DNA from: a virus
Virus genome (UHGV): UHGV-0095783
Direction: 5' to 3' (one strand)
DNA length: 23,905 nucleotides
Shown here: positions 39 to 8,006 of the stretch, in pieces
Numbering within the stretch: the stretch's first letter is position 1
Layout: each line of letters begins with the position of its first letter
Position numbers and translations under genes: made by a program
Notes under the pieces: generated by a model
The model's input: only the letters and a program-made list of their open reading frames with translations
Databases searched by the model: none
What the model was told of the DNA's origin: nothing

Positions 39-317
39 ATGCAACTTACAAGTACTCGCAAGAAAGCGAATGCAATTACAAGCAACATCCTGAATCGAAT
101 TGCTGTACGTGGTCAGCGAAAGGTTGCCGACGCGTTAGGGATTAATGAATCGCAAATTTCGCGATGGAAAGACAGCTTTATCCCAAAGATGGCCATGCTT
201 CTGGCTGTGCTGGAATGGGGTGTTGAAGACGAGGAGTTGGCGGAACTGGCTAAGAAAGTAGCCAGAATGCTGACAAAAGAAAAAGCCCCGAAGAACGGCG
301 AATTCTTCGAGGCCTAA
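39..317 (+). CDS. cII: CII-like transcriptional activator
   Basis: 92-aa ORF whose translation (…[33 protein letters not shown]…) closely resembles lambda CII as recalled; the leader aaggaaatacttacatATG is lambda-like; the C-terminal tail differs from lambda. Confidence 0.85.
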
Positions 318-3113: not shown

Positions 3114-3534
3114 AATTCGATCTCCAGCACATCAGCAAAACGCTATTCACGCAGTACAGCAAATCCTTCCAGACCCAACCAAACCAATCGTAGTAACCAT
3201 TCAGGAACGCAACCGCAGCTTAGACCAAAACAGGAAGCTATGGGCCTGCTTAGGTGACGTCTCTCGTCAGGTTGAATGGCATGGTCGCTGGCTGGATGCA
3301 GAAAGCTGGAAGTGTGTGTTTACCGCAGCATTAAAGCAGCAGGACGTTGTTCCTAACCTTGCCGGGAATGGCTTTGTGGTAATAGGCCAGTCAACCAGCA
3401 GGATGCGTGTAAGCGAATTTGCGGAGCTATTAGAGCTTATACAGGCATTCGGTACAGAGCGTGGCGTTAAGTGGTCAGACGAAGCGAGACTGGCTCTGGA
3501 GTGGAAAGCGAGATGGGGAGATCGGGCTGCATGA
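3094..3534 (+). CDS. ninB: NinB recombination protein
   Basis: 146-aa translation is essentially the lambda NinB sequence as recalled. Confidence 0.9.
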   Translation: MKKLTFEIRSPAHQQNAIHAVQQILPDPTKPIVVTIQERNRSLDQNRKLWACLGDVSRQVEWHGRWLDAESWKCVFTAALKQQDVVPNLAGNGFVVIGQSTSRMRVSEFAELLELIQAFGTERGVKWSDEARLALEWKARWGDRAA

Positions 3535-4058
3535 CTATCAAAGCAAATACGCCAGCACACGACAAGGACTGCTGGCAAACGCCGCTTTGGCTTTTTGATG
3601 CACTGGATATTGAGTTTGGATTCTGGCTGGATTCGGCAGCGAGCGACAAAAATGCTCTGTGTGCTCACTGGCTAACTGAGGCCGACGACGCGCTCAATTC
3701 TGAGTGGGTAAGCCACGGTGCAATCTGGAATAACCCACCGTACAGCAATATCAGGCCGTGGGTGGAAAAAGCCGCTGAGCAGTGCATACAACAGCGACAG
3801 ACGGTAGTGATGCTTGTGCCAGAGGATATGTCAGTCGGATGGTTCAGCAAGGCTCTGGAGAGTGTCGACGAAGTTCGCATTATCACTGATGGACGGATTA
3901 ATTTTATCGAACCATCGACAGGGCTGGAGAAGAAGGGAAACAGCAAAGGCTCCATGCTGCTGATTTGGCGACCGTTCATCAGTCCTCGACGGATGTTTAC
4001 TACCGTATCCAAAGCGGCATTGATGGCGATCGGGCAGGGCGTCAGGAGGGCAGCATGA
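3531..4058 (+). CDS. phage DNA N6-adenine methyltransferase (Dam type)
   Basis: ATG 3531 overlaps the ninB stop (ATGA). NPPY motif (…[11 protein letters not shown]…) and WQTP…[11 protein letters not shown]-terminal region typical of phage Dam methylases; occupies the ninC/ninD position. Confidence 0.8.
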
Positions 4059-5008: not shown

Positions 5009-5211
5009 CGTTCTCAGTAAAAACCATTCCAGACATGCTCGTTGAAGCATACGGAAACCAGACAGAAGTGGCACGCAGACTGAAATGTAGTCGCGGTACG
5101 GTCAGAAAATACGTTGATGATAAAGACGGGAAAATGCACGCCATAGTCAACGACGTTCTCATGGTTCATCGCGGATGGAGTGAAAGAGATGCGCTATTAC
5201 GAAAAAATTGA
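5005..5211 (+). CDS. ninH: NinH
   Basis: 68-aa translation [37 protein letters not shown]… matches lambda NinH as recalled. Confidence 0.85.
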
Positions 5212-5860
5212 TGGCAGCAAATACCGAAATATTTGGGTAGTTGGCGATCTGCACGGATGCTACACGAACCTGATGAAAAAACTGGAGACGATTGGATTCG
5301 ACACCCAAAAAGACCTGCTTATCTCGGTTGGCGATTTGGTCGATCGCGGTACAGAGAACGTTGAATGCCTGGAATTAATCACATTCCCCTGGTTCAGAGC
5401 TGTACGTGGAAACCATGAGAAAATGATGATTGATGGCTTATCAGAGCGTGGAAACGTTAATCACTGGCTGCTTAATGGCGGTGGCTGGTTCTTTAATCTC
5501 GATTACGACAAAGAGATTCTGGCTAAAGCTCTTGCCTATAAAGCAGAAGAACTTCCGTTAATCATCGAACTGTTGAGCAAAGATAAAAAATATGTCATCT
5601 GCCACGCCGATTATCCTTGTGACGAATACGAGTTTGGAAAGCCAGTTGATCATCAGCAGGTAATCTGGAACCGCGAACGAATCAGCAACTCACAAGACGG
5701 GATCGTGAAAGAAATTAAAGGCGCGGACACGTTCATCTTTGGTCATACGCCAGCAGTGAAACCACTCAAGTTTGCCAACCAGATGTATATCGATACCGGC
5801 GCAGTGTTCTGCGGAAACCTCACATTGATTCAGGTACAGGGAGAAGGCGCGTGGGCATAA
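5189..5860 (+). CDS. ninI: Ser/Thr protein phosphatase (lambda NinI / PPase-like)
   Basis: Metallophosphatase motifs GDLHG, GDLVDRG, GNHE; translation from [25 protein letters not shown] matches lambda phosphatase as recalled. The track ORF opens 9 nt earlier at 5180. Confidence 0.9.
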
Positions 5861-6339
5861 GAGAACTAAACCTCACCAAAGAACAGCACGATTGGCTGAA
5901 TGGCTGGCTTGAACTGTGGGGGGCATGGGTTTATTCAGGTCGTCTGGAAAAGCGCATGAGCAGCGTAATAGCTAAGTTCATGGAGAGCGTAGAGCCGGGA
6001 AGAGTTATGACAAGGCCAATGTGTAATGATGATGATGGAATGTTGATTTCTCAGGTCGTCGATTCCGTCATGTACATTGACAAGAAAGCCTTTGGCATCC
6101 TCCTCAGCTACTACGCTCATGGCTCTTCCAAGCACGCCATTGCATCTTACTATCATCGCGTCGCAAGACCTCGCAAGATGTTATGCCGTGGCGGCGGGCG
6201 CATTCAAAAACCATCGCTCGCAACCTGTCGACGGGAAGTTGACGAAATCCTTAATGCCTCGTTGTTTATGATTTACCCGGTTCTGGATAGTGCGTTTAAA
6301 AATCGGAAACGTGTAGAGAAAATTAAACATGTAGCATAG
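5851..6339 (+). CDS. Q: late-gene antiterminator Q-like protein (non-lambda allele)
   Basis: GTG start overlapping the ninI stop. Located between ninI and the lysis cassette. WGAW, P-x-C-x-DDD and YY motifs resemble E. coli prophage QuuD-type antiterminators as recalled; does not resemble lambda Q. Confidence 0.65.
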
Positions 6340-6345
6340 AACGTG

Positions 6346-6380
6346 TTGACATCATTGAGCAAATGAGCAACACTATTGGC
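6346..6380 (+). promoter_or_regulatory. candidate late promoter (pR'-like)
   Basis: Consensus -35 TTGACA at 6346-6351, 7 nt after the Q stop, with a terminator ~35 nt downstream. The -10 element is not clear (cactat/aacact). Confidence 0.3.
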
Positions 6381-6384
6381 ATAA

Positions 6385-6427
6385 GCTGCCGTTAGTGACT
6401 CTTAAGTTGCAACGGTGGCTTTTTTTT
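6385..6427 (+). terminator. rho-independent terminator (tR'-like)
   Basis: 9-bp stem gctgccgtt/aacggtggc (two G-U pairs) with a 17-nt loop, followed by a T8 run at 6420-6427. Confidence 0.55.
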
Positions 6428-6431
6428 ATTT

Positions 6432-6506
6432 GGGTCAGTCGTATAAAGGTCATTACGGAAGGCTGTTAACCTTCTTATCGTGGTTCGAGTCCACGCTGTC
6501 CCGCCA
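6432..6506 (+). tRNA. tRNA-like element, anticodon GUU (Asn) by hand folding
   Basis: 75 nt. Acceptor stem 6432-6438 with 6496-6502 (6/7 pairs), U8, A14, GG in the D-loop, anticodon stem gaagg/ccttc with loop CTGTTAA (anticodon GTT at 6465-6467), 4-nt variable loop, T-arm cgtgg-TTCGAGT-ccacg, discriminator G and encoded CCA. Anticodon loop and T-arm match E. coli tRNA-Asn as recalled. Folded by hand only. Confidence 0.45.
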
Positions 6507-6785
6507 AACATGCTGGTTTAGCTCCAATGGTAGAGGTGGTAAATGCCGAGCAAAGATTACTATCTTAATCGAAGGGCTAGGCTTGCTAAGGCCGTGGAAA
6601 AGTTGGGTGGTCGTTGCGCGAGTTGCGGATCCGAATACTAATGGTCTAGTTATTTCAGACATATTCATCAATTTCAGGCTCACGGGAATCATCCGCTACG
6701 TGCTTTGTTGATAAATCCAGCCCGTGAAGCCTGACCCTTTTCAAACACACACACAGCACCATCCGGAAAATCGGAGGTGAGGCCT

Positions 6786-7109
6786 ATGAAAATGCCATAC
6801 AAACAAGATTTCATCGCTGCGCTACTTGCCGCCAAGGAGCAGGGTATTGGTGCAATGCTGGCTTTTATCATGGCGTATCTGCGTGGTCGCTATAACGGCG
6901 GCGCGGTAACAAAAACGCTAATTGATGCGCTGATGTGCGCGATGATTGCCTGGTTCGTTCGTGACCTTCTGGACTTTATCGGCCTGAGCAGCAACCTCGC
7001 CTACATAGCCAGCGTCTTTATTGGATACATCGGCACCGATTCGATCGGCAATCTTATTAAAAAACTTGCAGCAAAAAAGGCGGGAGTTGACGATGCAAAC
7101 CAGTCCTGA
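6786..7109 (+). CDS. S: holin S, lambda class I, with dual-start motif
   Basis: Translation [27 protein letters not shown]…[10 protein letters not shown]… closely matches lambda S as recalled. ATG at 6786 and ATG at 6792 give the Met-Lys-Met arrangement of lambda S107/S105. SD ggaggtga at 6773-6780. Confidence 0.9.
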
Positions 7110-7542
7110 CGGAATTGCTCTGATAAAAAAATTTGAAGGTTGTCGGCTGACTGCTTACCCCGACCCCGGAACGGGAGATGCGCCGTGGACCATCGGCTAT
7201 GGCTGGACCCATCCGGTTGACGGAAAGCCAGTAAAGCGCGGTATGACTATCGACCAGCAAACCGCTGACAGGCTTCTGAAAACAGGGCTTGTTGGTTATG
7301 AGAATGACGTGCTGAAAGTTGTCAGGGTGAAGCTGACACAAGGCCAGTTCGACGCACTGGTGTCGTTCGCTTACAACGTTGGGTCGCGTGCTCTTTCCAC
7401 ATCTACACTGCTGAAAAAGCTGAATGCTGGCGATATAAAAGGCGCGGCAGATGAATTTCTGCGCTGGAATAAATCAGGCGGAAAGGTGATGCCGGGGCTC
7501 ACGAATCGCCGCAAGGCAGAGCGAGCTCTGTTCCTGTCATGA
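7093..7542 (+). CDS. R: endolysin, true lysozyme (GH24, P22 gp19-like); not the lambda transglycosylase
   Basis: 149 aa; [11 protein letters not shown]…GYG and C-terminal [11 protein letters not shown] parallel P22 lysozyme as recalled. Start overlaps the end of S. Confidence 0.9.
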
Positions 7543-8006
7543 TTAGCGCACTGGTTAAGCGTTACTGGCTGCAGTTGCTGGTGCTGGCGTTAATCGGCGC
7601 ACTGGCTTTCTTCGTGAACCACTACCGCGACAACGCCATCACTTACAGAGACCAGCGCGATAAGGCCACTGAGAAACTCCTCCTGGCGACCGCCACCATT
7701 AAAGACATGCAGACCCGCCAGCGTGATGTCGCTGCACTGGATGCCAAATACACAAAGGAGCTTGCTGATGCTAACGCGACTATCGAAAGTCTCCGTGCTG
7801 ATGTTTCTGCTGGGCGTAAGCGCCTGCAAGTCGCCGCCACCTGTGCAAAGTCAACGACCGGAGCCAGCGGCATGGGCGATGGAGAAAGCCCAGGACTTAC
7901 AGCAGATGCTGAACTCAATTATTACCGTCTCCGAAGTGGAATCGACAAGATAACCGCGCAGGTTAACTACCTGCAGGAATACATCAGGACGCAATGCCTG
8001 AAATAA
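7539..8006 (+). CDS. Rz: i-spanin Rz
   Basis: N-terminal TM segment, then [11 protein letters not shown]…[22 protein letters not shown] resembling lambda Rz as recalled; ATGA overlap with R. Confidence 0.85.
7768..7953 (+). CDS. Rz1: o-spanin Rz1 (lipoprotein), embedded in Rz in the +1 frame
   Basis: ATG 7768 preceded by SD aaggag (7755-7760). [20 protein letters not shown] has a lipobox with Cys, and the mature part is Pro-rich ([14 protein letters not shown]…). Lies entirely inside Rz. Confidence 0.8.

Follow-up and report, generated by a model that had tools for sequence, protein, structure and literature searches.

The window, that is, the whole 23,905-nt stretch of DNA analysed here, very probably carries the late-gene antitermination switch of a lambdoid prophage in the allele of bacteriophage 21. 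Judged by its sequence, the feature is nearly identical to a well-characterised phage regulatory cassette, already known and nothing new. The phage 21 promoter was mapped in the 1990s, and crystal and cryo-EM structures followed in 2019. The sequence-only reading of this DNA had not recognised it as this already characterised cassette of phage 21. The main value of the result lies in annotation, in that the phage 21 Q allele with its late promoter pR', Q-binding element (QBE), sigma-dependent pause element (SDPE), terminator tR' and tRNA-Asn can be placed with base-level confidence. The late-switch architecture was recognisable from the sequence alone, without tools. Because the cassette is thoroughly characterised, no new biological question is opened.

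The Q-pR'-tR' region matches bacteriophage 21

Positions 5851-6535 of the window share 98.7% DNA identity with Escherichia phage 21 (OL657228.1). The alignment is colinear (window coordinate = locus coordinate + 4351), so that the annotations of OL657228, a record that annotates the cassette elements with literature references, transfer directly to the window. In the alignment with the phage 21 late promoter region, which the sequence-only reading had proposed as a check, the -35 hexamer, QBE, -10 hexamer, start region, SDPE and tR' hairpin all match, and the -35, QBE, -10, SDPE and hairpin are the same base for base. A comparison with eleven related sequences leaves two sole differences from phage 21 in the 100-nt cassette, G for C at -3 (position 6378) and T8 for T7 in the terminator T run. 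The G at -3 is common to phi458, JLK-2012, E. coli KL53 and E. coli C 236-04A, and both G at -3 and T8 are present in other phages or prophages.

A megablast search with positions 5851-6520 matched 94 phage records in all, among which phage 21 (OL657228.1) and phi458 align over the whole query at 98.7-98.8% identity. The best overall match, with 99.8% identity over 5852-6800, comes from a prophage of strain C 236-04A (E. coli O125ac:H10). Many E. coli prophages have the same cassette; among 5426 complete E. coli genomes, 924 match the 950-nt query 5851-6800, mostly with partial cover, and at least 80% of this query is covered in only 6 of the 5426.

The antiterminator gene encodes Q21

The Q gene (5851-6339, + strand) starts with GTG, is preceded by a ribosome-binding site GGAG at 5840-5843 and ends with TAG at 6337-6339. 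Its 5' end overlaps the 3' end of a ninI-like phosphatase gene (5180-5860; PF00149, calcineurin-like) by 10 nt. The 162-aa product is, on the match described here, phage 21 Q (Q21) itself. Specifically, 161 of its 162 residues are the same as in the PDB chains of 6JNX, 6JNY and 6P18-6P1C (E ~1e-109), which carry the names 'Antiterminator Q protein' or 'Q protein' and which are structures of bacteriophage 21 Q. E14D is the sole substitution relative to 6JNX_P and 6P18, and it lies outside the reported set of DNA-contact residues, whereas the QBE-contact residues S93, K94, H95, R113, A124, T125, R127 and R128 are all the same as in Q21.

Family assignment points in the same direction. The window Q matches Pfam PF06530 (E = 1e-24; 87.2 bits, cut-off 26), which is defined as the 'Q21 family' (PMC9388147). 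Its Pfam matches include neither PF06323, the Q82 family (at E <= 0.01), nor PF03589, the lambda Q family, to which lambda Q itself was assigned; an NCBIfam search with the window Q matched no model. In line with the earlier claim that the protein is not of the lambda type, BLASTP finds no similarity between the window Q and lambda Q (E = 4.5). The resemblance to QuuD-type antiterminators claimed at the same time also holds, since K-12 QuuD is 29% identical over 125 aa (E = 4e-11) and shares PF06530, and it can now be narrowed to Q21.

A putative CII-dependent antisense promoter resembling paQ lies within Q (6144-6176, - strand), following a pattern-based annotation in OL657228. It comprises a CII box, TTGCGAGGTCTTGC, at 6176-6163 (- strand) with the pattern TTGC-N6-TTGC and, 13 nt after it, a -10 sequence TAAGAT at 6149-6144 (- strand). 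Because this antisense CII box and TAAGAT lie inside Q and a CII-like protein is encoded at the start of the window (39-317), a lambda-style CII-activated antisense brake on Q expression is plausible. A further promoter-like site inside Q, at 6007-6036, was returned by a consensus scan and was set aside, as one such site was found and 2.0 were expected by chance.

The late promoter pR' contains a direct-repeat Q-binding element

Six bases, AACGTG, separate the Q stop codon from the hexamer TTGACA at 6346-6351 (+ strand), which thus begins at the seventh base, as had been read directly from the sequence. The proposal that this consensus hexamer is the -35 element of the late promoter is borne out by phage 21, where it is annotated as 'minus_35_signal pR' late promoter' (OL657228). 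The -10 hexamer, which had been described as not obvious, is AACACT at 6369-6374 (+ strand; minus_10_signal in OL657228); it is indeed weak, matching the consensus at three of six positions, and follows the -35 hexamer after a 17-bp spacer. The late promoter start (+1) is placed at 6381 (+ strand), which is the annotated start in OL657228 and fits the numbering of Shi et al. 2019. Both this assignment and that of the terminator rest on the GenBank OL657228 annotation (citing PMID 1704887) together with that numbering.

The QBE occupies the promoter spacer between -35 and -10, directly downstream of Q, and consists of two TGAGCA cores with an 8-bp period. Its upstream half, QBEu, is ATTGAGCA (6354-6361, + strand) and its downstream half, QBEd, is AATGAGCA (6362-6369, + strand), both the same as in phage 21. 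QBE subsites are known to be direct repeats of TGAGCA, and mutation has shown that antitermination needs C:G pairs at -21 and -13 (Shi et al. 2019, PMC6606751). With +1 at 6381, these two positions correspond to C6360 and C6368, which are the C residues of the two TGAGCA repeats, and the oligonucleotide used in the published binding assay, GCAAATGAGCAACA, equals window 6359-6372 (Shi et al. 2019). The -21/-13 positions and the binding oligonucleotide independently agree, which supports the register of the QBE in the window.

The 16-bp repeat ATTGAGCAAATGAGCA at 6354-6369 has this one exact match in the window, while TTGACA taken alone occurs no more often than chance would give (7 occurrences against 13.25 expected). 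A simple consensus scan of 5500-7200 missed both pR' and tR', presumably owing to the weak -10 match (three of six positions) and to the bulge in the hairpin stem. The significance of the cassette therefore comes from the ensemble, that is, from the unique 16-bp repeat and the 98.7% identity to experimentally annotated phage 21.

The pause element overlaps the terminator hairpin

Immediately downstream of the start, the SDPE TAAGCTG, a -10-like sequence annotated in OL657228, spans +2 to +8 (6382-6388, + strand). At phage 21 pR', the pause lies 18 bp downstream of the start (PMC9191641), and the pause in the window is accordingly expected at about +18, near position 6398. The intrinsic terminator tR' (6383-6427, + strand), annotated in OL657228, Nil2 and Sf6, is formed by a hairpin at 6383-6421 and a T8 tract at 6420-6427. 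The hairpin has 17 pairs in a stem interrupted by a bulge, and the terminator folds at -20.2 kcal/mol (z = -4.19), an energy equalled by 1 of 200 shuffled sequences. The same hairpin is found in the 11 related sequences, with T runs of 6 to 8.

The T tract ends 82 nt from the first base of the -35 hexamer, which agrees with the earlier observation of a strong terminator within about 80 nt. The SDPE and the 5' arm of the hairpin overlap, which is the native phage 21 layout. The terminated leader RNA would be about 47 nt long; at a permissive Rfam threshold, tRNA alone was matched and no family was found for the leader RNA. Taken together, the QBE at 6354-6369 and the SDPE at 6382-6388, both the same as in phage 21, bear out the expectation that this region should carry the Q-binding and pause sites matching its Q allele.

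Genes around the switch

The first gene of the late transcript is tRNA-Asn with anticodon GTT (6432-6506, + strand), which begins 4 nt after the T tract, was detected by ARAGORN and Rfam (RF00005, 55.3 bits) and is the same gene as in phage 21. Of the protein-coding late genes downstream of the switch, the first encodes a lambda-family holin with an MKM dual start (6786-7109, + strand; PF05106, E = 9e-30), annotated as 'phage holin, lambda family' in the E. coli prophage with 99.8% identity, and is followed by a lysozyme and an Rz-like gene (6786-8006 from holin to Rz). tRNA-Asn, holin, lysozyme and Rz are all intact. The ORFs beyond about 10.5 kb may, by their sizes and order, be virion genes.

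Between tRNA-Asn and the holin gene, the similarity to phage 21 stops 24 nt into tRNA-Thr (6512-6535), which is truncated in the window, unlike in phage 21. The tRNA-Thr stub is followed by a remnant of an HNH endonuclease gene (6543-6641), of which the first 32 codons are left, closed by a premature stop. This gene is whole (141 aa) at the same site in the E. coli KL53 prophage, compared with which the window has lost 1035 bp, the deletion junction lying at 6636|6637. We considered the HNH fragment as an insertion that split the tRNA and rejected this, as the KL53 prophage, with its intact HNH gene, likewise lacks the 3' half of tRNA-Thr; for the same reason, the HNH gene is better described as a replacement module than as a simple insertion.

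Upstream of Q, the genes between 3094 and 5860 are ninB, an ORF at 3471-4058, ninG (PF05766), an ORF in the ninH position and the ninI-like phosphatase gene (PF00149). The ORF at 3471-4058 is probably a DNA methylase gene, by the position of an annotated methyltransferase in comparison locus L005. The two closest E. coli prophages have rusA where the window has ninG. The upstream genes are mosaic between the window and comparison loci L001, L004 and L005, and the Q-pR'-tRNA module is therefore exchanged by recombination independently of the genes next to it.

Proposed mechanism and alternative explanations

The evidence from the window itself consists of protein and cis-element identity to phage 21, the terminator fold and gene order, and the start site, pause position, Q binding and nozzle mechanism come from published phage 21 work. 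We propose that Q21 would be produced from the delayed-early transcript, and that sigma-70 RNA polymerase would initiate constitutively at pR', with +1 at 6381. Sigma region 2 would then re-bind the -10-like element at +2 to +8, and polymerase would pause near +18. Without Q, transcription would terminate at the tR' hairpin and U-tract, releasing the leader of ~47 nt. With Q, two Q21 protomers bound to the ATTGAGCA/AATGAGCA repeat in the spacer would load onto the paused complex, and one of them would form a ring, the 'nozzle', on the RNA-exit channel. The nozzle would admit only single-stranded RNA, and the terminator hairpin could therefore not form. The antiterminated transcript would extend through tRNA-Asn, holin, lysozyme and the Rz-like genes and, as ORF sizes and order suggest, could continue into the ORFs beyond ~10.5 kb. 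For phage 21 itself, the direct-repeat QBE is bound cooperatively by a pair of Q21 protomers, which engage the paused complex, and the Q21 nozzle narrows the RNA-exit channel and blocks pause and terminator hairpins (10.1101/651190; PMC6606751); Q-dependent terminator read-through has been demonstrated in vitro (Shi et al. 2019, PMC6606751).

We infer that the cassette is active in this prophage, although the prophage may not be fully pristine, given the tRNA-Thr truncation and the HNH remnant just downstream. That rearranged DNA, with tRNA-Thr cut after 24 nt and the HNH gene reduced to 32 codons by the 1035-bp deletion relative to KL53, is what would favour an inactive relic in a defective prophage, in which the phage 21 switch sequence persists and control of the late operon has been lost. 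We consider such a relic quite improbable, as Q, holin, lysozyme and Rz all have intact ORFs, the cis elements are the same as the functional ones of phage 21 and more long ORFs lie further downstream. Still harder to credit, to the point of being nearly dismissible, is that TTGACA follows the Q stop by mere chance, that the late promoter lies elsewhere and that the hairpin terminates the delayed-early Q transcript. TTGACA is not enriched in the window, the -10 is poor and the consensus scan missed the site, all of which would fit a chance occurrence; yet the -35, spacer, -10 and start region are the same as those of the annotated, experimentally used pR' of phage 21, and the same scan reported no alternative promoter-like site between Q and the holin gene.

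With the phage 21-type switch as the preferred reading, there is a small chance that G at -3, T8 and E14D measurably alter the basal strength of pR', the efficiency of termination or the loading of Q when set against phage 21. If so, the window would carry a quantitatively different late-switch allele, and such differences have been proposed among the Q alleles of Stx phages.

Comparison with other Q systems

Phage 21 (OL657228.1, AJ237660.1; PDB 6JNX, 6P18-6P1C) has the same cassette spacing, with tRNA-Asn next, and differs around it. Its Q has an ATG start and E14, whereas the window Q has a GTG start and D14; of ninH it retains just a fragment, fused next to Q, where the window has full ninH and the ninI-like phosphatase gene; and it uses the S21 pinholin for lysis in place of a lambda-family holin.

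The Stx2c-converting phages Nil2, 2851 and 1717, together with phi458, JLK-2012 and SfI, encode the same Q, with 0-2 substitutions beyond the start codon (R103S and V144I in Nil2 and 2851), and their pR'/tR' is the same as in the window, apart from QBEu in the Stx2c phages, which is GTTGAGCA, with G as its first base where the window has A at 6354. In the Stx2c phages, similarity to the window stops inside tRNA-Asn (query position 605, window ~6455), and other tRNA genes (Ile, Arg) follow the break. In Nil2, the break adjoins an annotated IS285-like insertion.

Phages with Q of the Sf6, HF4s and phage L type (PF06530) share the architecture, the tR' hairpin and tRNA-Asn with the window. In Sf6 (locus L003, 1297-1380) and HF4s, Q has 172 aa and is 85% identical; the N-terminal 93 residues of Q21 are kept, whereas the helix-turn-helix region has diverged, including two base-reading residues (H95R, R128N). 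Their promoter carries an altered direct repeat, AATTAGCC/ATTTAGCC, and a -10, CATAAT, better than the AACACT of the window. Compared by sequence, this looks like a natural swap of Q/QBE specificity; we dropped it as an unreported case, since phage L has previously been proposed to differ in Q specificity (PMC8022706). Much more distant is QuuD of the DLP12 cryptic prophage of K-12, which has 127 aa and lacks the C-terminal extension.

Lambda follows the same logic at the same genome position, with Q, a promoter with the QBE between -35 and -10, then a sigma-dependent pause, terminator and lysis genes, although its Q protein family (PF03589) is unrelated to the window Q. The lambda late transcript starts at 44588, and its 6S RNA is 194 nt long. 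The gap from the Q stop to the -35 hexamer is 43 nt in lambda and 6 nt in the window, and the terminated leader is 194 nt against ~47 nt, with the position of the lambda T tract read by eye from the lambda sequence. The terminator therefore does lie far closer than in lambda, as the sequence-only reading had it. Lambda Q additionally requires a -35-like element (Shi et al. 2019, PMC6606751) and NusA-induced refolding (PMC9388147). On the alignment with phage 21, the compactness is the native arrangement of that phage and no peculiarity of the window genome.
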